A program made the position numbers and the translations under genes. A stretch of DNA of 64,000 nt from Escherichia phage A73: the sequence record OP778609. The stretch is one strand, 5' to 3'. The notes below the pieces were generated by a model, which was not told where the DNA came from, did not search any database, and saw nothing but the letters and a program-made list of their open reading frames with translations. Below are positions 7,502 through 55,701 of this stretch, piece by piece (position 1 is the stretch's first letter; every line of letters starts with the position of its first letter).

Positions 7502-7596
7502 TAGATATCAATTACTACGATTTCAAGCATTGAGTTTTCAACAGCTTCCTTATGTTTTGCTGAGTAAAATTTCATTTAATTATCCTCTCTGCCAGT

Positions 7597-7863
7597 TTAT
7601 AATTTTTCTTTGCCTAAAGTAAGACTAATTTCGAAAGTTTTTGTGATAACTTTATCGTCTTTGTCGAAGAAATCAAATTGGACATAACTCTCGGTCGAAC
7701 TGACAACCAGACCTACAGAGACAGTCCCTTCTGGTACGAGAGCCTTATATTCTTCTTTTAGCACAACGTCGTAAAAATACAACGCTCCACAATAAACTTC
7801 ATCCCAACCATCAAAAGATTCGATGAAAGCTTTTTCAATACCAACTAAAGTATTTTCTGACAT
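7597..7863 (-). CDS. hypothetical protein
   Basis: 88-aa ORF. Confidence 0.4.
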   Translation of the reverse strand: MSENTLVGIEKAFIESFDGWDEVYCGALYFYDVVLKEEYKALVPEGTVSVGLVVSSTESYVQFDFFDKDDKVITKTFEISLTLGKEKL

Positions 7864-9994: not shown

Positions 9995-10919
9995 AGGATC
10001 ACACTTAAACTTCCCTTCTTTCACACAATGACCATCCAAGATCATTTTCTTAGCCAAGCAAGCTTCTACAAATTTCTTCGCGTCAGCTTCGTTGTCAAAG
10101 GTCCAGGTCTTCTTGAACTTGTGCGGTACTTCAAGCTGGTATTCATCCAAAAGTTTAACGAGGTCGTTACTCTCGCCCACATCATTACATGTTGCCATAC
10201 GTTTTCACATATGGATCGGACTATATCACCATCCTTTTCAGGATGCTCCCCATTTCGACGGCACTTGCTCGCCTACGCCTCTCGGCTAGTCTCTGAACGT
10301 TAGGACCATGTGTAGTCACAAGAGATGTGTGTCCAGTTTTTACGGATTTTTATGGACCTTACCACGTTGTAAGGATAACCCATATCCCGAATCTGTGCAC
10401 TTCCATAACCTTGCCCCAGGAAGTTGCAAATCTCTCTAACCTCTTCTTCGGTAACTATACTTCTGGCGTTATCAACCCCTGTTGCTGAACGACATTTATC
10501 AGCAAAGGTTTTCTTGATATTTCCACCACGAGTTGTCCATTGGAGGTTTGAATAGTGGTTATTCCTTTTGTCAGGCCACTTATGATCAACCTCCGGCAAA
10601 CCTTCAGGGTTTGGTACAAAACACTCTGCCACCAAAACGTGAACAGCCTTTGTAGTCGTCCTTTTGTTGAGATACAGACTTACAATAAGATACCCACGTC
10701 CATTATCAACTGCCGCCATTGGTTTCCCTCGACGACCTATAATGGTCCCGTCTTCATAAACCTTGTAACCGAAATAATCTTTATATTCCACATGATCCTC
10801 TTCGCTGCTGATTAACATAGTCTCATACTAACTCACACTTGAATTAATATCAACCTTAGTCTTCCAGCAATTAAAGGAGTTTTCGATGTGAGTTACCTCA
10901 CAAAGCCACAATGTTACTT
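9995..10919 (-). mobile_element. intervening sequence splitting the polymerase gene (intron-like or free-standing homing endonuclease cassette)
   Basis: About 925 nt inserted between the His and Asp codons of polymerase motif C; contains an HNH endonuclease ORF. Confidence 0.55.
10300..10818 (-). CDS. HNH homing endonuclease
   Basis: 172 aa; NUMOD4-like N-terminus (YKVYEDGTIIG) and HNH motif (VDHKWPDKRNNHYSNLQW). Confidence 0.8.
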   Translation of the reverse strand: MLISSEEDHVEYKDYFGYKVYEDGTIIGRRGKPMAAVDNGRGYLIVSLYLNKRTTTKAVHVLVAECFVPNPEGLPEVDHKWPDKRNNHYSNLQWTTRGGNIKKTFADKCRSATGVDNARSIVTEEEVREICNFLGQGYGSAQIRDMGYPYNVVRSIKIRKNWTHISCDYTWS

Positions 10920-13250
10920 ATGGTAATAGATAATACGTCTAACGCCTTCATCATACCAACCTTTCTTGACCAACTGCCAGTGCAGGAGGATACCCACCAA
11001 GTCAAACAGTGCAGCACCACCATTCTGCTGATAAGCATTAAGCAATGAGTGTTTGGAACGAGTGTAGATCTTACGTCCATCAAGACCGTAGATGAATCGC
11101 TTACCGTTAGCTTCCCAAAACTTCTCTAATGCTTCTTTACGACCTTTCAAGCCGATGTTGCTATCCCAGAATGCGTCGATTACTGCCTGGGCCTTCTCAA
11201 GAGTGATCCCCAGCATTGATGCAATCTTCGCTGCCTGTGCCCCGTACATAATTCCGTATGTCACACCTTTACCTTCACCACGAGAAACCTTCTTCCCTGC
11301 CGCTTTGGTATACGCTTCTGCGTTTCGGGAGTGAGCATCTCCAGATTCCATGATACGAAGATAAGCACCGCCATCGAAATCATAAGCGCCCCATGCTGCG
11401 ATCATACCTTCTAGGTTTGAACCGTCGATACCTACCTGATATTTACCCTCAGAGGCTCTGAATAGTTCACGCATCTCTTTACCGAGAAGAACTTTCTCAT
11501 CCGGCTTAGGTACGTTTGCTACGATCGTATGCTTACGACGACCTGTGTTAGTTATTCCACTATAACGGGCCGGAAGTTTACCGTCAACTCGTAGACGTGG
11601 ATGGTTAAGCCATCCGGTATCAACCTTCTCTTCTTTCAGCGGGTCAAGAACAGATCGTCGGTTACGTAAAGACAGCCATTTAACAATCTGTTTAGCCATT
11701 TCACCATCTACTCGCTCAAGGTTAGGGCAAAGACCCTGTTGATCCTTAAGTTGTGGAGATGTAGGTAATGCACGAGCTTTCTTACGGAAAAACTTGAACA
11801 TCTTTTCTTTATCTGACCACTGCTTAGGTGTGATCGCCAAGCTTTTCAGAATCAGATCACGATACTCCGTCTGATCCAAATCTTCAATGTATTGACGAAC
11901 AATCAGATCAACTTCACTATCGGGACGTTGTTTCTTGAACTGATCTTTAGTTGCATCCTTTGTACGCCAAATTGTTGGGACCCATCCTGCATCACGGATC
12001 AGGAACTTCTTAACGTCGTCCTGGTTACCAATACGCATCGGAATCATAATGTCCGGCATCTTTTGTTCTTTGATATCCATCAAAGCACGAGCCATATCTT
12101 CCGGCGGCAAAGGAACAAGCCCTTGCTGCTTAACGTTTTGTGCACGGATAAAATCACCCATTTTGGATTCGTCCTCTACACCGTGTTCAACACAATACTT
12201 GATCGCGGCAGCAGTAAGAGATCCGTCAGCCTTAAACGGCTTACTTGGTGCACCTTTAAATTCCAAGGCTTCCCAATTGATATTATAACCTAACTTCTCT
12301 AACCATTTCCAACCTGTACCGGAAAGAGATCCATCACCCTTGAAAGGTTTGGATGGGAATGTCGGTTGTGCTGATTTCGACATCTCTTTCTTCGGCAACT
12401 TAGGTTCAACCTCTAACTCAATGTCAGTCATCATCTTATCGATACGATCACGAAGCTTGAGTGCTTTTTCTTCATCAAATGAAACACCCTGAATTTCTTG
12501 CTCAATCATCAGGTAGTCAGTCAACATACCTCGACGCAGGGCATTCTTCCAGTTGATCATTTTATACTTCTTCTGATCTTTGTCTGTTTCATCCTTAAAC
12601 ATGAAGCGTTTATCATCCGGCATGGATTCACAGGAGATCTCTTTCATCAGAGCATCCCACACCATTTCGTTGATAATTACGTCTTCAATAATACGATCGC
12701 AATACTTCCAAAGTGGAAGGCCACGCCAATCTTCAATCGCCACTTTCTGGTTAGCTACTCGCATACCCCAAGCTTCAAGCCCGTGTGGCCCTACAGGCTT
12801 CATTTTACCTGTGACGGGGTTCTTTACCATCTCAGGACAACCGCGAGGCAGAGGGCGATCTGGATACAATGTACGGGACATTGAAAGTGTATCGAAGATG
12901 GTTACTTGTTTACCATTGATCGTCCCCATGCAACCAGGGTCTGCAAACATATCGTAAGTTGTTCCTAGCATCTTCTTAAACAACTGGAGGTCATAGCCGA
13001 AGATGTTGTGGATAGCAACTGCTTTAGGCTCGGTAACGAACCATTCGTTTAATTCTTCAAGGGTGCGGATCTTGAAGTTTTTACCTTTAGATTGGATAAA
13101 TTTAACAGCTTGATCGTAACCTTCTCGCTGTGGATCAAGAAAGATGTTCCAGTTATCTTTTTTGTACTCTTTAAACAAGATGCAGTGGATTAGATCAACT
13201 TCTGTCAACAGACCATTAGCTTCCGCATCTCCAATAAATAAGCCTTTCAT
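10920..13250 (-). CDS. DNA polymerase A (T7 gp5-like), N-terminal exo domain plus polymerase domain through the His of motif C
   Basis: 3'-5' exo motif GDAEANGL; motif A GIDGSNLEGM; motif B KGVTYGIMYGA; tail GLDGRKIYTRS...NAYQQNGGAALFDL; the ORF stops two codons after the motif C His. Confidence 0.85.
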
Positions 13251-19445: not shown

Positions 19446-21491
19446 TCAGAAAGGTGCGTCGTCGTCCCAATCATCCGGCTCTGTGTCCGGCACATCAGGA
19501 ATATCACCTGTGGATTCAACGATACTTTGTTGTTCCCACGTAGGTTCTTCTGAAGGTTGTTCCATTTCTTCCATAACCTTCTTGATCTCTTCCTCTTGCT
19601 CACGCAGGAAGTTATCATCCGGCTCAGGAATATCTTCCTCTTTAATATCTGAACGAGTGAGATCACTGTTTTGTTCAGACAGAGGTTGAATCTCTGCTGC
19701 TTTAGGCTTAAAGTCTGGAGAACGATGATCATCTTCTGGATGAGCGGCATACCACTCACGAAGAGTTTCATAAGGACTCTCTAAGAAGCCCTCTGGCGGT
19801 TCCAGATAATCACCCGTGTCAATGTCATAGAACACAGGGAATTTACCAGCACGACCGTGTTTACGGTCATCCAGAATAACAAAGTAAGAAGTGTTACGTT
19901 GTTTCATCGGGAGTTCTGGATCTTTGTTACGTTCAATACCCCACATGTAATAAGTGTTACGCATCATTGCACGGCTACCAGCAAACTGCGCTGACTGGAC
20001 TTGACCACCAAATTCATGAGGCTTACCAGATTCAGGCTTGTTAAGGTGACAGAAGCAATAATAGGTAAAGCCAAGCTCTTTTGCCAGTTTGGAGATCTCA
20101 TCAGAGAATCGTTCCAGTTCCTGGTTAGCTTCGGAAGCACTCATACCTTGCACAAGACGAGTGATTGGGTCAATAAAGATATCTTCACAACCTTCTACGA
20201 TCACTGCGTGACGGATAGCACCTTTCAGTTCATCCCATACTGCACGACCATAGTTGTTATAATAGATAACACTATCACCAACTTCATCAGTAGCCTTGAT
20301 CAGTTCTTCTTGCTTAAAGTAGCCACGTTGACCTTCAAATACTTCATTACCCCAAATGTCACGGAAAGTTCCATCTTCTTGAGGAATCATTACCTTTTCT
20401 GCGTTAACAAAGTCTTTATGATAACGCTTACCTGCGATCTTTTTACAGGTAATTTCGTTCTCTTCTTCAAACTTAAACACCGCAGCCTTTGACTTCTCAA
20501 TGCCTGTAATGTGTTCTACCATCTGGTTAAGAAGTTCACTCTTACCCATCTTGACCCCAGCCCCGATAAAGTAACCTTCACCTGGGCGACGGCCTAAAGT
20601 AAGCTTGGTCATGGTAGGCCAAGGGAATTTCTTACCAAGTTTAGGGATCTCATGGGCTTTTTCACGGAACTGTGAATAAGTCGAGAAACCATCCGGCACA
20701 TATTCCTTTGGCTTCATTGCAGCCCAAAACAACTGATCAGAAAGTCCTTTGTTATACATGTCGCAAGGGTCCATATCTTCTGGAATGTCCACGACTTTCA
20801 TTTGTGGAATTACAGAGTATACCGCTGCAACTGCATCTTTACCTTTCATGATCCCTTTGGCCTTCTCTGCCTCTGTTGCACGGTCAGCGTCGAAAGCTAC
20901 GATAATCTCTTCAAACTTACTCAGAAGCTTATAGTTATTCTTCTGTGATAAGTTTTGCACGGCATTGGATGTACCGTTAGAGATTGATACTACGGTGAAG
21001 TTAGGTTTACGGGTGGAACCATCCTTCGGTTTGTACTTCTCTGTCAATACCTGCCACAAGATTGCAGCATCATATTCACCTTCAGTGATAAAGATCATAC
21101 GTTTGGAAGACTTATTTGCACCTTCCAGCCCAAACATATCACAAGCCACAGATTGGAAACCAATAGTTGTAAAGTGACCTTTCTGTTGCTTAGGGATCGT
21201 AAGATCACGCTTCTTAAAACCTACAACCTTACCTTCCAATGTGTACGGAAAATAATGTGCTTCTGGAGTCATACCGTCTTTAGCTGACAACTTGGTACGA
21301 ATACCAAATCGTTTAGCTGTCTTTTCGTCGATACCACGCTCAGGGATACTTTTACACGGATAAGTCAATACGTCTTCAACTGTTTCTTCCACACGAGACA
21401 CACCACCACCATAATTACGTGCTACTGAAGCTTTAGGATTTTTATGTCCAAACTTATAACCGCCAAACAGACTTTCGCCAATAGTGCTCAT
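19446..21491 (-). CDS. T7 gp4-like primase-helicase (TOPRIM plus DnaB-like helicase) with acidic C-terminal tail
   Basis: 681 aa; TOPRIM ITEGEYDAAIL and FDADRAT; Walker A GAGVKMGKSE; CHLNKPESGKPHE; long acidic tail ending DDWDDDAPF; no N-terminal Cys4 zinc-binding domain. Confidence 0.85.
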   Translation of the reverse strand: MSTIGESLFGGYKFGHKNPKASVARNYGGGVSRVEETVEDVLTYPCKSIPERGIDEKTAKRFGIRTKLSAKDGMTPEAHYFPYTLEGKVVGFKKRDLTIPKQQKGHFTTIGFQSVACDMFGLEGANKSSKRMIFITEGEYDAAILWQVLTEKYKPKDGSTRKPNFTVVSISNGTSNAVQNLSQKNNYKLLSKFEEIIVAFDADRATEAEKAKGIMKGKDAVAAVYSVIPQMKVVDIPEDMDPCDMYNKGLSDQLFWAAMKPKEYVPDGFSTYSQFREKAHEIPKLGKKFPWPTMTKLTLGRRPGEGYFIGAGVKMGKSELLNQMVEHITGIEKSKAAVFKFEEENEITCKKIAGKRYHKDFVNAEKVMIPQEDGTFRDIWGNEVFEGQRGYFKQEELIKATDEVGDSVIYYNNYGRAVWDELKGAIRHAVIVEGCEDIFIDPITRLVQGMSASEANQELERFSDEISKLAKELGFTYYCFCHLNKPESGKPHEFGGQVQSAQFAGSRAMMRNTYYMWGIERNKDPELPMKQRNTSYFVILDDRKHGRAGKFPVFYDIDTGDYLEPPEGFLESPYETLREWYAAHPEDDHRSPDFKPKAAEIQPLSEQNSDLTRSDIKEEDIPEPDDNFLREQEEEIKKVMEEMEQPSEEPTWEQQSIVESTGDIPDVPDTEPDDWDDDAPF

Positions 21492-22824: not shown

Positions 22825-24183
22825 TTACTGGTTATTGAAAATACTCGGGAACTTCTCGTGATAGAAGTCTACAACATCCTGATCAACGATGATATCTTTT
22901 ACTCGCAGACGCTTCATCAGGCGAAGACCTTCTACGGATGTGGCACGAGATAGCATGACGTAGGCTTGCCCAGGTGTAAAAGTACCAAAACCAAGATCAA
23001 TATTTACTTTACCCAAGGTAAGACCCTGCGCTTTATGACCCGTGATTGCATAACCTAACTTAAATGGGTACTGGATATACTCACCGATAGATTTATCAAC
23101 AAGAACAGTTTTTTCAACCATCTTCTTGATCGTCTTTTTGGTTCCGTCCGGCATATCCACCTCTTCCTCTTCAAGCATCATCTTTTTCTCAGGTACTTGA
23201 GCAACGTTGTTCCATGTTGCAGGGCCTATTGGGACCATCTTGCCATCGATATCTACAACAACAAAGGTTTTTGCGATACGACGAACAATGCCGACTGTAC
23301 CGTTGACATAATCAGGCACTTTCTTCTTCTGATCATTGTCGTTAACAACAATCATTACTTTAAGACCTTCCTTGAGAAAGAGTTTTTCATTAACTGGACG
23401 TTCAACAAACTCACCAGTAATACGGGCATTAAATTCATGCTGTTCAGCATTAATCTTTGCGTACTCTTTGTTGTTAATCTCTTCTGCCAGCTTGTTTGTG
23501 GTAGTTAAAGTTACTGCCCCGTCAAGTGGACGACCAAAGCAACGCTGGTTAAAGAAGTTAACGGCATCAGGGATGTTTTTCCCGATACGAATATTGTTCA
23601 GGTGTTCTGCAAACACTGGATCACTTTGACGATGAACTTTAGGAAGATAAGCATAGGTCAGATTCAAAGATTCCCAAGTTTCACACCCAAAAGGAATTTC
23701 TTTCCCGTGCAGTTCACGGAACAAAGGAACTTCTTCTTTCTTAAGTACAGGCTTGATCTGGAAGCCGTCACCAAACATGATGATCTGGAGTCCACCAAAA
23801 GGCTTATCGGATTTACGATGGTGGCGAAGTTTCATATCGATTTCTTTCAGTTTGTCACTTCTAGTCATACCGATCTCATCGAACACGATACCATCGAGTG
23901 CATCAGATGCCATAAGCATAGCTGCCTTTTTAGATTTTGCTTTATAATCCTCGGAAGTTGTGACACCAAAGGTTAAACCAAACGCTTTATGGGTAGTAAC
24001 ACCACGGATGTTTAATGATGCCACGCCTGTTGGACCAACAAACAGAAAACTATCAGCAAAGAAGTCACGCAGTGCTGCGATCATCATACTTTTACCACTA
24101 CCACCAGGTCCGGTGATAAAAACGTTTTCCCCATTCATGATTGCTTGCATTGCCGCTTCGTTACCGATCACTGTCTTAGTCAT
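22825..24183 (-). CDS. Dda/Pif1/RecD-like SF1B DNA helicase
   Basis: 452 aa; Walker A GPGGSGKS, motif II VFDEIGM, GDGFQ, HKAQGLT, YVMLSRAT. Confidence 0.8.
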   Translation of the reverse strand: MTKTVIGNEAAMQAIMNGENVFITGPGGSGKSMMIAALRDFFADSFLFVGPTGVASLNIRGVTTHKAFGLTFGVTTSEDYKAKSKKAAMLMASDALDGIVFDEIGMTRSDKLKEIDMKLRHHRKSDKPFGGLQIIMFGDGFQIKPVLKKEEVPLFRELHGKEIPFGCETWESLNLTYAYLPKVHRQSDPVFAEHLNNIRIGKNIPDAVNFFNQRCFGRPLDGAVTLTTTNKLAEEINNKEYAKINAEQHEFNARITGEFVERPVNEKLFLKEGLKVMIVVNDNDQKKKVPDYVNGTVGIVRRIAKTFVVVDIDGKMVPIGPATWNNVAQVPEKKMMLEEEEVDMPDGTKKTIKKMVEKTVLVDKSIGEYIQYPFKLGYAITGHKAQGLTLGKVNIDLGFGTFTPGQAYVMLSRATSVEGLRLMKRLRVKDIIVDQDVVDFYHEKFPSIFNNQ

Positions 24184-33937: not shown

Positions 33938-35476
33938 ATGGCAAAACTTACGATTGAAGAAAGCAATATGATTGAAATGCAAGTCTCTGAAGCAGAGCGT
34001 ATCATCGAGGCTGCTAGTCTACAACTGATGCGGTTTAAGCCCTTCTACGGGGTAATGCTTTCGTCTATGCCTGTTAAAAAGGCGACGGAGTGGTGTAGTA
34101 CAATGGCGACTGATGGACGTAACCTGTATTACCATCCAGAGTTCGTTGCAGGTATGACAGAAGAACGTAAAAAATTGGTACTTGATCGACTTTCCAAAAC
34201 TGAGAAAGATCCTAAAAAGCTGAAAGAGTCCACTGAGTTTATTAATGTCTTCTATCGTCGCAAGACTGCCCGTGAGCTTGCTCTTATTCTTGAGCACGAA
34301 TGCGATCATGTGATCTCTGATCATGCCTCTCGCGGTAAAGGATTTAATCATGAACTTTACAACATTGCAGCGGATCATCGTATCAATACAACGGCGGTTC
34401 TTATTCACCAAAAGGGGGATGAGTTAGGTAAGGCATGGTTCCCTGCCGGAGAAAGAACAGTATTCGATAAGAATGCAGAATTTGGATTTATGGCCTGGTC
34501 TTACTGTGATTTCCGATTCAAAGATATGTATACTGAGCAGATCTATGAAATCCTGAATAAAGAGCAAGATGATAAAGAAAAATCCAAAGGGAAAGGTTCT
34601 GGTTCTGGAAGTGAAGAGGGTGATGGTGAAGAAGGTGGTCAAGGTCGTAAAGGTGTTGATCAGCACATGGATCAGAATGGTGATCCAGAAGATTCAGAAG
34701 GTGATGGTATCGAAGATGCACTAGGAATCGACCGTAAAGCGAAGCCTAAGCAAACAGCAGAGGAACGCCAGTATAACGATGGGGTTATGCGTCGAGCCAT
34801 TGAGAATGCCGTACAGGCAGCAGGAAGCGGTGCACCGGAAGATGCTCGTCGTTTTGTAGAAGCGGCGGGTAAACCAAAGATTAATTATCTTCGTTTGTTG
34901 CGTAAAACTATTGAACGTCTGTTCAAAGATGATGTATCATATCGTCGTTTGTCACGCCGTAGTCACTCGTTAACTCGGACTCTTCGTGGCTCGGGTTACT
35001 TATCTGGACGACAGACGATTGGTTTACCCTCAAAGAATAAACAGAAGACTATTCGTGCAGGTGTCTTCTTCGACGTATCGGGATCATTTAACGATGATCT
35101 ATTGCGTCCAACAATGCGTGAGATTCGTGGATTATGTAATCTTTACGACGAATTTGAGGTCACGATGGCTTGCTGGTCAACAAAGGTTGGTAACATCGAG
35201 ACGTATACGAAAAGAAACGTTGGTGAGATTGCTGACTATAAGATCAAAACGACATTTGGTACGGATGTTTCTTGTGTGTTTGAAGCATTAGATGAAATGA
35301 AAGACCCTATGGATCAGATCATCATCTATACTGACGGTTACTTTGCTGATGTATCCCAAAAGAAAGATTGGGCCAAAAAGTATGGTAAGAATGTTCTTTG
35401 GATCATCCTGGGTCGTGGGTCTTCGTTCACCCCACCTTTCGGTAAGGCAATTGATTTTGACAAGTATCTTAAATAA
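33938..35476 (+). CDS. vWA-domain protein with N-terminal HExxH putative metallopeptidase domain
   Basis: 512 aa; HECDH motif; acidic/Gly-rich linker; C-terminal vWA with MIDAS-like DVSGSF. Confidence 0.7.
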   Translation: MAKLTIEESNMIEMQVSEAERIIEAASLQLMRFKPFYGVMLSSMPVKKATEWCSTMATDGRNLYYHPEFVAGMTEERKKLVLDRLSKTEKDPKKLKESTEFINVFYRRKTARELALILEHECDHVISDHASRGKGFNHELYNIAADHRINTTAVLIHQKGDELGKAWFPAGERTVFDKNAEFGFMAWSYCDFRFKDMYTEQIYEILNKEQDDKEKSKGKGSGSGSEEGDGEEGGQGRKGVDQHMDQNGDPEDSEGDGIEDALGIDRKAKPKQTAEERQYNDGVMRRAIENAVQAAGSGAPEDARRFVEAAGKPKINYLRLLRKTIERLFKDDVSYRRLSRRSHSLTRTLRGSGYLSGRQTIGLPSKNKQKTIRAGVFFDVSGSFNDDLLRPTMREIRGLCNLYDEFEVTMACWSTKVGNIETYTKRNVGEIADYKIKTTFGTDVSCVFEALDEMKDPMDQIIIYTDGYFADVSQKKDWAKKYGKNVLWIILGRGSSFTPPFGKAIDFDKYLK

Positions 35477-53149: not shown

Positions 53150-53569
53150 ATGAACATCAAATCAACTAATCCGGCTTACTCTTTCGATAACGCTTTTTGT
53201 CACGGTAGTGCCGCCAAAGGTTTTGAAATTGATGGTAAACTGGTTATCGTCAATGTTGATGGGGAAGAGGTTGCAGTTTATCCAGTGGCAGACGTTAAAA
53301 GCCGTTTACAATGCCGCATGGATGTTAACGAATACCGCCTTGATCCGGTTCGTGTCGTTGCCCTGGTACTGGAAGAAGAAATTAAAGCAATGCAGCACAG
53401 CAACAAATTTATCGGCGATGCACAGGACAACATGAAAGTAAGCCGCCACAAAGTTAATGAAGCACTGAAAGATTTTGGCTTTAAAGATCTAGTTATCAAA
53501 CGTGATGAAAAATTTCGCTTTCGTAATGATCTGGCAAATCGCTACTATGAAATCTATGAAGCACTTTAA
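53150..53569 (+). CDS. hypothetical early protein
   Basis: 139-aa ORF. Confidence 0.5.
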   Translation: MNIKSTNPAYSFDNAFCHGSAAKGFEIDGKLVIVNVDGEEVAVYPVADVKSRLQCRMDVNEYRLDPVRVVALVLEEEIKAMQHSNKFIGDAQDNMKVSRHKVNEALKDFGFKDLVIKRDEKFRFRNDLANRYYEIYEAL

Positions 53570-53689: not shown

Positions 53690-53887
53690 ATGACCATCGC
53701 TAATGAACTGATCGCTGTATTGAATGAAGCCAAATCTAATCAGATCGATGTACAGATCAAAGAATTGCCCAATGGCCTGATCGGTTGCACTTGCACCTGC
53801 TTCGGAAGTGACTACACAGAGGTAAGCTCTCTAGAATCTCTCATTCGTCACTTGAAATCAATAGTTGAAGATTGGAGAATCATCTAA
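53690..53887 (+). CDS. hypothetical early protein (last gene of the early cluster)
   Basis: 65 aa; followed by GGGCCGCAATAGTGGCCC hairpin. Confidence 0.5.
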   Translation: MTIANELIAVLNEAKSNQIDVQIKELPNGLIGCTCTCFGSDYTEVSSLESLIRHLKSIVEDWRII

Positions 53888-54379
53888 TCAACCAGGGGCC
53901 GCAATAGTGGCCCTTGTCATATCCATCGGCGTGACTCTCCCAACTCTATTAATCCCTTCCCCATTTGGATCATCATAACTTACCTCATCTAATCATTAAT
54001 CTAATCCCCTTTGGAATCTCTCCCCCACAAATCTAAACTAATCTGATAGCTTACCATAACATAATCCACAAAGAAAGAACTATTTTGCCCACAATGAAAG
54101 GCAGTTTTAAAGAGATACCATTGCCAGAGTATGGAGGTGGCGCGACCGTAGGGAGCGACACTATAAAACGAGTATACCCCTCCTACCGCTATGCGGTCAT
54201 CGGTGATAACCGATATCGTTACACGCTATCTGTTCTCTTCGTTTCCTCGTTTTATAGTGTCTATATGTAGTAATCTTTTATTCTTTGTCAATACATTATC
54301 GAAGATAATATTGAATTATTTAATGCTTTGTTATTCATATAAAGTGAATAGCTAGTCAATAGGAAGGCCGTTAGTGTGA

Positions 54380-54440
54380 CCACACAAAGAGGCTATGCAC
54401 CACAAAGAGAGGCCGTACTTGCCCACAAAAGGAGCAAACA
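54380..54440. repeat. three spaced copies of CCACAAAGAGG-like motif
   Basis: GACCACACAAAGAGG, CACCACAAAGAGAGG, GCCCACAAAAGGAGC at roughly 20-bp spacing. Confidence 0.55.
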
Positions 54441-54503
54441 AGCAAGGCGGTACGCCAGTTTGCTAATGAGCGTAGCTCTTTTGCTAGACAAAACTCTCTT
54501 CTC

Positions 54504-54661
54504 TCTTCTTTCCCAAAATAAATTTTTTCTTGCTTTTATTGCCAGAGTATGGCGGGGGGAATGTTGAAAAAATAGATCTTGACTGGTCAACATACGATAC
54601 ATCCTATCTTCTTTCCCAAAATAAATTTTTTCTTGCTTTTATTGCCAGAGTATGGCGGGGG
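54504..54661. repeat. perfect 55-bp direct repeat, two copies (about 54504-54558 and 54607-54661)
   Basis: TCTTCTTTCCCAAAATAAATTTTTTCTTGCTTTTATTGCCAGAGTATGGCGGGGG present twice; partial third copy TTGCCAGAGTATGGAGGTGGCG near 54121. Confidence 0.75.
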
Positions 54662-55344
54662 CGCTCAGGCTATTGATGGCCCTGATGGAGTCGCTCCTGT
54701 ACAGTTGGAATAGTTCACAGTTGGATAGTAACAAGTTGGTATTATTCTTCCCACAAGTTGGAGCAGGCCAGAACTGGCGGGGCTTAGAGTCGCCTCACTT
54801 GTTGGACTGGAAGGAGGGCGCTTGCGGTGCGTATAAGTTGTATTATGTTAAATGCAGATCGAAATCGGTATTCTAAACCAGATTCAGAAGTCAATAGAAA
54901 TCTTTAACTTTATTGTTGGGGCAGCACAACATTTTTCTTGACAAGTCGAATCAAAGATGTATTGTGGATTGAAAATAAATGAAGATAATGCTTGACTTCT
55001 TGGATATTTTGAAAACATCGGACCCCCTCCCCCTCCCCCACGGTCGCCGTGCCTGGCAGCAGTGCCAACGCACTAGACAAAAAAGATGCTTTCTTGCTGA
55101 CGAAGAACAAGGTCAACAGACAACAGACAAGGCTGGTTAGACTGGTTAGCCTCTTCAGGCCAGTACCCTTTGGATATATTTGGGCAGGTACAGAAAAGGA
55201 CCCACCCCGTCATTAGTGACTCAAAATTTTGGCGGGAGGGTAAAATAACTAAAAAGTGGTCGTTTAAAATTCAGGCTGGAGGTCCACTCAGAGTAGACGT
55301 ATACTGGAAATTATAAACTACAAGACGAGTGGATGTATGGACGT

Positions 55345-55690
55345 GACTCCGTGGCATGAATGCCACTCTGTGGACAATAGGCATTACTCTGTGGCAAGAG
55401 AGGAGCCTCTGTGGACAATCGGAGTGCCTCGATAGGCAGAATGGACTTGACTCTGTGGGCAAAGTAGTGTGTCTCAGTAGGCCAACAGTGGTTACTCTTT
55501 AGGCAAACTACCTAATTTTGGGATGAACTGATATTTGTGGGAATCATTGTACGATATTTGGGCATTATTGTAGGTGGAGTACAACAGTTTGGAAGGACGA
55601 TATAGTTTGGTGGGCACAACATTTTGGGATGAGCAGATGAGTTTGGTTGCAATCCAGATGCAAAAAGCACCCACTTTTGGGGTGCTCTCT
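55345..55690. repeat. array of about 16 degenerate 18-23-bp tandem repeats
   Basis: Cores (C)TCTGTGG(A/G)CAA in about six units, then TTTGGG/TTTGGNGG in about ten units, phased at roughly 21 bp. Confidence 0.7.
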
Positions 55691-55701
55691 GTAGTTCAGG
55701 A

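Follow-up and report, generated by a model that had tools for sequence, protein, structure and literature searches.

In the window analyzed here, i.e., the whole stretch of 64,000 nt from Escherichia phage A73 (record OP778609), an rV5-like Escherichia coli phage of the Vequintavirinae, two gene blocks converge on a gene-free stretch extending from 53888 to 55701 between the stop codons of a rightward open reading frame (ORF) of 65 amino acids (aa; 53690-53887) and a leftward ORF (55702-56100). This stretch very probably represents the genome-terminus region, that is, the concatemer junction, of a phage packaging unit-length DNA with short direct terminal repeats (DTR). The statement of the initial annotation, a model's reading of the same letters, that no credible ORF is present holds true, as the longest one does not exceed 74 aa and is broken in relatives. 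This ORF (54652-54876) can be rejected as a gene, being frameshifted in the relatives with variable sites distributed as 11/13/9 over the codon positions, i.e., without a coding signature, and its similarity to an overlapping ORF in Klebsiella phage DP stems solely from a conserved DNA core. Small ORFs annotated in relatives at this region are mutually inconsistent. The Rfam 15 covariance models gave no match reaching the gathering score anywhere in the window, nor any at E ≤ 1 between 53800 and 55800, and a tRNA search found none in the region. The following features were assigned (window coordinates, strand where applicable; a vertical bar within a motif marks the predicted end).

53893-53916, plus strand: stable hairpin immediately behind the final rightward gene's stop codon, terminator-like, no U-run
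53925-54119: pyrimidine-rich outer left flank with CCACAA- and AATC-type motifs; would be right-end unique DNA in the mature genome
54120-54143, plus strand: lineage-specific box ATTGCCAGAGTATGGAGGTGGCGC, first copy (repeat family D3), with further copies at 54538 and 54641 inside the predicted DTR
54136-54261, plus strand: long hairpin behind a GC-rich lead-in (GGTGGCGCGACCGTAGGGAGC), at a distance of 225 bp from the left end of the predicted DTR
54262-54486: inner left flank, AT-rich and then hypervariable, containing CCACAAAG units and TTTGCTA twice at a distance of 21 bp
54482-54490, plus strand: predicted left DTR boundary site TGCTA|GACA, the end lying between 54486 and 54487 by homology to the UPEC06 start and to record ends of Pr121LW, Aya, ECP2309 and DP
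54487-55053: predicted DTR of 567 bp, about 464 bp without a strain-specific insertion; junction form with one copy
54559-54661, plus strand: strain-specific 103-bp insertion, absent from five of five relatives
54703-54805, plus strand: five (A/T)GTTGG(A/T) units inside the predicted DTR
54827-54853, plus strand: subfamily-wide core GTGCGTATAAGTTGTATTATGTTAAAT, 27 nt, in the middle of the predicted DTR and near-invariant in the DTR alignment
54938-54965, plus strand: sigma-70-like promoter TTGACA-16-TATTGT inside the predicted DTR, directed toward the right boundary; a consensus match only, at 10 of 12 positions
55003-55009, plus strand: GATATTT site, 51 bp inside the predicted right boundary
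55023-55039, plus strand: C-rich tract CCCCCTCCCCCTCCCCC toward the right edge of the predicted DTR, found by Tandem Repeats Finder
55050-55058, minus strand: predicted right DTR boundary site, TGCC|TGGCA on the plus and TGCCA|GGCA on the minus strand, the end probably lying between 55053 and 55054
55054-55487: hypervariable inner right flank; would be left-end unique DNA in the mature genome
55345-55660, plus strand: array loosely phased at about 21 bp, with CTC..RGGC units in the left and (GATA)TTTGGG units in the right half
55655-55691, minus strand: intrinsic terminator of the leftward gene block, a GC stem followed by UUUUU, kept in six relatives

At the DNA level, blastn, also in its distant mode, matched the region to only five phage records, namely W70, A5-4, A7_1, LTH01 and UPEC06, which are unclassified members of the Vequintavirinae with 137-145 kb. 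The adjacent 128-aa protein is restricted to the same five phages, its exact sequence being on record in W70 only. Farther homologues were reached via the flanking 65-aa protein and a 55-nt query containing the core, not via blastn with the whole region. This query matched 242 phage records at E ≤ 5, and among the matches listed there are mainly Vequintavirinae (Vequintavirus, Mydovirus, Certrevirus, Seunavirus and Henunavirus), besides some unrelated low-scoring ones; the matched positions lie mostly in unannotated DNA and often 170-300 bp from a record end. In addition, a degenerate core pattern retrieved 21 IMG/VR loci, and short-word blastn revealed two islands common to the window region, NHEP1 and CB7. 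Certrevirus CB7, Seunavirus PVP-SE1 (2.3 kb, curated annotation) and Vequintavirus Bas54/MaxBurger (2.5 kb) likewise have a large stretch devoid of genes at this convergent junction.

The DTR of strain A73, present once in the window as expected of a concatemer or a circularised assembly, is predicted at 54487-55053 because the ends of the UPEC06 record and the record ends of other lineages align to these positions. UPEC06 bears an exact 462-bp repeat at both record ends, with its first base aligning to 54487 and its last base to 55053 of the window. Hence, the segment 54487-55053 aligns to both ends of that record as one copy between right-end and left-end unique DNA, the sequence to its left matching the UPEC06 record end and that to its right the UPEC06 start. 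An artefact of circular assembly was considered for this end overlap and dropped, as the ends coincide with the boundaries of other lineages. Correspondingly, an exact 459-bp repeat is found at both record ends of ECP2309 (Vequintavirus), a 514-bp repeat_region containing the core is annotated at both ends of Klebsiella phage DP (Mydovirus, OP296941), and an IMG/VR genome of 148,842 bp has boundaries of this kind around an exact terminal repeat of 519 bp. For the related Klebsiella phage KPP-1, a 514-bp DTR has been demonstrated by approximately twofold coverage and a T7-type PhageTerm call (PMC9862379). The records of Pr121LW and Aya start at GACAAGTTTTTCTCC, corresponding to the left boundary, while those of bov22_2 and ECP2309 begin, read on the opposite strand, at ...CGTCCGCC, corresponding to the right boundary, and the DP and IMG/VR genome records end at the base homologous to the latter. 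Thus, independent records from four lineages begin or end at homologous bases, and 16 half-sites share a consensus, as is characteristic of fixed, sequence-defined ends. If this reading is true, virion molecules of strain A73 should begin with GACAAAACTC and end with GTCGCCGTGCC, with the repeat at both ends.

Both boundaries are situated at the centers of short quasi-palindromes that are inverted relative to each other, the left one coinciding with the center of the palindrome TTTTG-CTAGA-CAAAA. In the direction leading into the repeat, 16 half-sites from eight lineages yield the consensus TGYYA|RRCR; T at -5 is conserved in 16 of 16 half-sites, and positions -4 (G), -1 (A) and +3 (C) each match in 15 of 16. 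Six of the 16 were taken from record ends and the others were located by pattern search. Their distances from the core hardly vary, the left boundary lying at -219 to -293 (-359 in the window, owing to the insertion) and the right one at +182 to +227. Among close relatives the DTR is conserved, in contrast to the DNA just outside both boundaries, which is hypervariable. What the comparison shows is the position of the repeat in relatives, the conservation of its boundaries and the geometry of the motifs.

Besides, additional boundary-like sequences are found in the vicinity. In NHEP1 (7590-7652 of locus L003), the left half-site TGTCA, as used in Vequintavirus, is preceded by six more TGTCA/TGACA at a spacing of about 10-12 bp; of the window counterpart TTTGCTA, only two copies 21 bp apart exist (54459 and 54480). 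Moreover, 55068-55098 is a degenerate copy of the repeat start at 54481-54537 (CTAGACAAAA...TTTCTTGCT; family D4), about 15-45 bp outside the right boundary, and NHEP1 has a similar TAGGACAAG just outside its own right boundary. The degenerate copy may be a vestigial or secondary cut site.

A further element at fixed position is the motif GATATTT (GATATWT), which occurs at -50/-51 from the right boundary in eight of eight lineages and 15 of 15 IMG/VR loci. The motif recurs in the same orientation shortly beyond the right boundary, with almost no copies on the opposite strand. In the window, plus-strand copies at 55003, 55173, 55530 and 55553 make up four of the 13 plus-strand copies of the whole 64 kb within 550 bp, while the minus strand of the same 550 bp has none. 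The 'TTTGGG' cores described in the initial annotation correspond in part to the 3' half of this motif.

To the left of the repeat, the long hairpin is built from perfect arms (54157-54172 and 54246-54261) enclosing a structured 73-nt loop. This block is approximately 100% identical in six relatives, and its inner stem shows compensatory changes. Across lineages, arms of 16-22 bp enclose a loop of 72-204 nt behind a lead-in of the type GGnGGCGCG...CGTAG...GAGC, and in the seven lineages for which the distance was determined the structure precedes the left end of the DTR by 205-403 bp; in further IMG/VR loci it is found at comparable distance upstream of the core. The arms occur in 13 different sequences that are all fully complementary, i.e., covarying. 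Folding of the hairpin as DNA gives -22.5 kcal/mol (z = -3.4), compared to a z of -2.2 when folded as RNA. An ATCTGTT in its loop resembling the T7 class-II pause signal is not conserved across lineages and was discarded as coincidence.

From these elements, a pathway for end formation can be proposed. The same-strand GATATTT sites straddling the right boundary would be bound by a phage protein, for which the terminase small subunit is the most plausible candidate and which may also bind the 27-nt core. The terminase nuclease would then nick the two TGYYA|RRCR sites, about 460-570 bp apart, on opposite strands because the boundary sites are inverted. Strand-displacement synthesis from the nicks would duplicate the repeat, leaving a copy at both ends of each packaged genome. 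The long hairpin and the phased flanking arrays might serve as accessory cis elements of end formation, and the two flanking terminators would keep convergent transcription out of the region. The identity of the binding protein, the cut strand and chemistry and the role of the hairpin are inferred. Possible, if rather doubtful as a whole, is the further-reaching assumption that the conserved set (two inverted nick sites, a site 50 bp from one of them plus outer same-strand copies, the 27-nt core and the 16-22-bp hairpin about 200-400 bp to the left) constitutes the complete cis apparatus for end formation in the subfamily by nick-and-displace duplication of a repeat of about 0.5 kb, with the hairpin acting at the DNA level, e.g., as primer or pausing structure, and that this is the reason for the Bas54 region being indispensable.

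Among the closest known systems is that of KPP-1/DP, which belongs to the same subfamily and shares with strain A73 the convergent gene-free junction and the 27-nt core in the repeat. Boundaries homologous to those of the window are GTTA|AACAC at the left and GTCCGTC|TAGCAC at the right, with GATATTT at -50 from the right boundary and the long hairpin 237 bp to the left. However, these phages represent another genus, their DNA is unalignable to the window outside short conserved blocks, and the repeat is 514 bp long compared to 464/567 bp. The published work on KPP-1/DP is confined to the repeat and does not cover its boundary sites, the motif at fixed position or the hairpin. A T7-type short DTR in Klebsiella members is already known, while defined conserved cis elements and an explanation of the Bas54 gap are added here. 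Furthermore, the Klebsiella junctions bear Fur-box-like palindromes, which the window lacks; as they are absent from both the window and Bas54, these palindromes were rejected as part of a common mechanism. They occur at three to five per junction in Certrevirus, Mydovirus and Seunavirus, namely in CB7 (L004, 5540-6380), F5M1E (L018), DP (L010, 3110-3200) and PVP-SE1 (L016). The Fur-box-like GATAATGAGAATCATTATC deviates by one mismatch from the E. coli Fur consensus, and shuffled sequences yield about 0.05 per region.

Phages T7 and T3, having repeats of 160 and 230 bp, respectively, resemble the model for strain A73 in packaging unit-length genomes with a short DTR that is present as a single copy at the concatemer junction. 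As in T7, the repeat would have to be duplicated during maturation, and the replisome encoded in the window is T7-like, comprising a family-A DNA polymerase and a gp4-like primase-helicase. Short-repeat arrays reportedly flank the T7 repeat on both sides. No new kind of biology is postulated, short terminal repeats with flanking recognition arrays being well known from T7-like phages. In contrast to T7, a 40-kb podovirus with transcription in one direction, strain A73 is a myovirus of about 140 kb with genes on both sides transcribed toward the ends; no T7-type RNA polymerase signal is conserved in the window and there is no sequence similarity to T7, and a T7-like mechanism is presumed. For T7 itself, a nick/displacement scheme has been proposed and a hairpin-containing intermediate reported (Chung and Hinkle, 1990, as cited in PMC4281155). 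The genes of this replication set, to which a Dda-like helicase also belongs, and that of a large 512-aa HNH endonuclease are found at 10914-13250, 19446-21491, 22825-24183 and 33938-35476.

The cos site of phage lambda consists of the nick site cosN with partial twofold symmetry and the adjacent cosB array of binding sites for the terminase small subunit. A similar plan, i.e., a symmetric cut site combined with a same-orientation array of short protein-binding sites at fixed distance, is predicted for the window. In lambda, however, nicks 12 bp apart generate 12-nt cohesive ends, whereas the sites in the window are 460-570 bp apart and would generate a terminal repeat, and the two systems show no sequence similarity.

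In Bas54, no transposon insertions were obtained in a region of about 2 kb between bas54_0134 and bas54_0135 (HIDEN-SEQ, bioRxiv 10.1101/2025.11.20.689424). The locus is homologous to that of strain A73, bas54_0134 being 86% identical to the window ORF 53150-53569, and holds the core, both boundary sites (DTR of 459 bp), the hairpin and GATATTT at -50. It differs in belonging to the genus Vequintavirus, with DNA alignable to the window in short blocks only. In the preprint, merely 'an important functional role' is ascribed to the region, and terminal repeats or packaging are not mentioned (10.1101/2025.11.20.689424). A terminal-repeat role would explain the complete lack of transposon insertions and would thus offer a testable explanation for this gene-free region of about 2 kb that the 2025 study left unexplained. 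Moreover, true genome ends could be placed for E. coli phages considered as therapeutic candidates, the database records of which are mostly cut at arbitrary points. Correct ends matter for genome length, annotation and engineering, and insertions would best be kept out of 53.9-55.7 kb. If true, a junction fragment should suffice to make a plasmid packageable. The boundary consensus, GATATTT at -50 and the 27-nt core could then be employed as markers to locate the termini in any Vequintavirinae assembly.

Several points weigh against the assignment of this region as a genome terminus. The repeat is seen once in the window, and the ends of strain A73 are predicted from its relatives. Record ends are products of assembly or annotation and not mapped termini, and the published coverage and PhageTerm evidence comes from KPP-1 only, a phage of another genus. 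From a phage cocktail, a headful (pac) PhageTerm call has been obtained for a Vequintavirus, with CheckV flagging a DTR on the same contig (PMC13211470). The boundaries in CB7, PVP-SE1, Erwinia phage 55 and F5M1E result from our own pattern search and are consequently not independent evidence for the consensus, which is in this part circular. In addition, the 21-bp phasing of the right flank is not conserved outside the lineage of the window. Finally, the Bas54 gap could reflect the selection scheme, either by a marker requiring read-through transcription or by a doubled insert being too large. Nevertheless, the exact, short and homologous repeats at record ends argue against headful packaging.

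Alternatively, the region might be, or also contain, an origin of replication, with iterons or DnaA boxes, AT-rich unwinding and a transcript or hairpin primer as in T7 or T4, which we consider unlikely. AT-rich stretches are indeed present at 54262-54345 and 54514-54540, AT-rich DNA also follows the conserved sigma-70-like promoter in the repeat, and a function as DNA is conceivable for the long conserved hairpin. The T7-like replisome and the apparently indispensable homologous region of Bas54 would also be compatible with initiation. The lead toward DnaA, however, is not supported. It is correct that TTGTCCACA deviates by one mismatch from the DnaA box, as noted initially, but only three such boxes and no exact one exist in the region, compared to a background of 0.48 per kb, and they lie in a hypervariable part and are not conserved in the seven other lineages. 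Neither a cluster of consensus DnaA boxes nor conserved iterons were found in the region, and no initiator gene is adjacent. Moreover, the region is located at the maximum of the cumulative GC skew of the window, not at the minimum near 31-32 kb beside replication genes, which is a weak argument because gene orientation also shapes the skew, and an origin at the same place as the termini is conceivable. End formation, rather than initiation, would account for the conserved boundary sites and for the motif placed 50 bp from one of them. At the skew minimum, near 31.4 kb, genes diverge from a junction that might harbor an origin.

Considerably less probable is a cluster of small non-coding RNA genes, in which 54136-54285 would yield a structured RNA of about 130 nt and the promoter at 54938 another transcript, their loss being lethal. 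In line with this, the hairpin is 100% conserved in close relatives with its arms covarying completely between lineages, and the promoter-like site inside the repeat is conserved as well, being identical in six relatives except for one base of the -10 hexamer in UPEC06. Rightward transcription is also argued for by an HNH gene downstream of this site and in the same orientation in W70 and CB7. On the other hand, the searches described above gave neither an Rfam match at E ≤ 1 nor a tRNA, no convincing match to a sigma-70 promoter was found upstream of the hairpin, and folding as RNA gives a less extreme z value than folding as DNA. G-T/G-U pairs are also lacking from the perfect arms in all 13 variants, a result favored by the search method. 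Above all, the record-end repeats and the boundary geometry would be left unexplained. The weakest alternative, an ordinary spacer of terminators and decayed sequence between converging operons with chance or neutral repeats and headful pac packaging from elsewhere, might be read from the terminator-like hairpins at both edges, the 58-bp repeat being a neutral strain-specific insertion, the large hypervariable parts of the flanks and the one headful call for a Vequintavirus (PMC13211470), but is highly improbable as the core, boundary sites, fixed-distance GATATTT and covarying hairpin are kept across genera within unalignable surroundings, terminal repeats with homologous boundaries exist in four lineages and the homologous Bas54 region is free of transposon insertions.

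With a genome terminus remaining the preferred assignment, the packaging or protein-binding site that the initial annotation had offered as a further option gains support from the conserved cut sites and the motif at fixed position, while the middle third of the region, i.e., the predicted terminal repeat, had been missed. Several of the repeat families listed there need revision. The perfect 55-bp direct repeat present twice plus a partial third copy is in fact a repeat of 58 nt with 57 of 58 positions identical (54501-54558 and 54604-54661), with a third copy of its 3' 24 nt at 54120, and it is strain-specific: each of the five relatives carries one copy of the 58-nt segment. The 103-bp insertion (54559-54661) starts with an exact, inverted 54-nt copy (54559-54612) of the coding strand of an RCC1-like gene (58823-58876), followed by the second copy of the 58-bp segment, and its junctions show microhomologies (G / TCTTCT). 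The insertion in the terminal repeat is a recent strain-specific rearrangement and not a functional array; it looks like a template-switch or filler-DNA event. The minus strand from 58228 to 61726 encodes three tandem paralogous proteins of about 380-400 aa, all starting with MLEM(M/L)NLG and matching RCC1/WD40_RLD-type beta-propeller families (phrog_4219; Pfam PF25390 in the W70 copy), and a fourth relative is encoded at 931-2166 on the plus strand.

Within the repeat, the five AGTTGGA units were found as five units between 54703 and 54805, only three of which are exact, the remaining ones reading AGTTGGT and TGTTGGA. AGTTGG occurs in four copies where 0.44 are expected. These (A/T)GTTGG(A/T) units are mostly kept in the six relatives and were not seen in other genera in the DTR alignment. 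The C-rich tract had been recognized correctly; it is similar to one in CB7 and F5M1E and not present in all lineages. The predicted promoter at 54938-54965 may drive the HNH gene where the latter is present. The respective endonucleases of W70 (7170-7652 of L001) and CB7 (6729-7214 of L004) comprise 160/161 aa and are 58% identical. Their gene is located between the right DTR boundary and a G-rich TTTTGGCGGG box, corresponding to approximately 55150-55205 of the window, from which it is absent. This mobile gene occupies the same relative place in two different genera.

In the left flank, enrichment of the CCACAA-type motifs was substantiated, with six copies of CCACAA versus 0.58 expected from the rest of the window. 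The reported flip of motif orientation between the halves is reflected in a mirrored GC skew of -0.52 at 53900-54099 and +0.33 at 55500-55699, and the inverted repeats I2, I3 and I5 link both halves. A C-rich left flank with negative skew and a G-rich right flank are common to eight of eight lineages. The hairpin at 53893-53916 gives an RNA fold of -20 kcal/mol (z = -3.2), and its stem shows compensatory changes among relatives (GCAATAGTGG versus GCTATTGCGG), while the terminator at the opposite edge (55655-55691) reaches -24.2 kcal/mol (z = -4.55). The sequence CCAGAGTATGG of the lineage-specific box occurs three times in the 64 kb, always in this region, and other lineages have a different duplicated box at the place of the 54120-54143 one. 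Across 54338-54487, the proportion of invariant columns in the alignment of the six relatives drops to 18-39%.

In the right flank, it amounts to only 0-30% at 55054-55487. This part holds a CTCTTCAGG unit, a conserved TTTTGGCGGGAGGGTAAAA box (55227-55245), CTCTGTGGAC units and the place of the W70 HNH gene. The G-rich box at 55227-55245 is also present in CB7, NHEP1 and W70, and CTCNNNRGG motifs (CTCTTYAGG-type) occur exclusively on the plus strand in the right flank of six of seven lineages. The array of about 16 phased 21-bp units proposed for 55345-55690 stood up in its periodicity, the autocorrelation at lag 21 reaching z = 4.7 compared to 3.3 for the 95th percentile of the maximum z of shuffled sequences. 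The units, however, are degenerate, CTCTGTGGAC occurring only twice in addition to one CTCTGTGGGC, and Tandem Repeats Finder detected no array in this interval, only four tiny repeats. In the five closest relatives, the left half of the array (about 55340-55470) is either highly variable or missing, whereas the right half (55488-55587) is 86-90% invariant. The 65-aa ORF preceding the junction (53690-53887) has homologues in the jumbo phages 121Q and PBECO4 (65-74% identity), in other Vequintavirinae, in phages of Phapecoctavirus size and, weakly, in T4-like phages. As neither LTH01 nor UPEC06 carries it, this small gene is mobile or dispensable.

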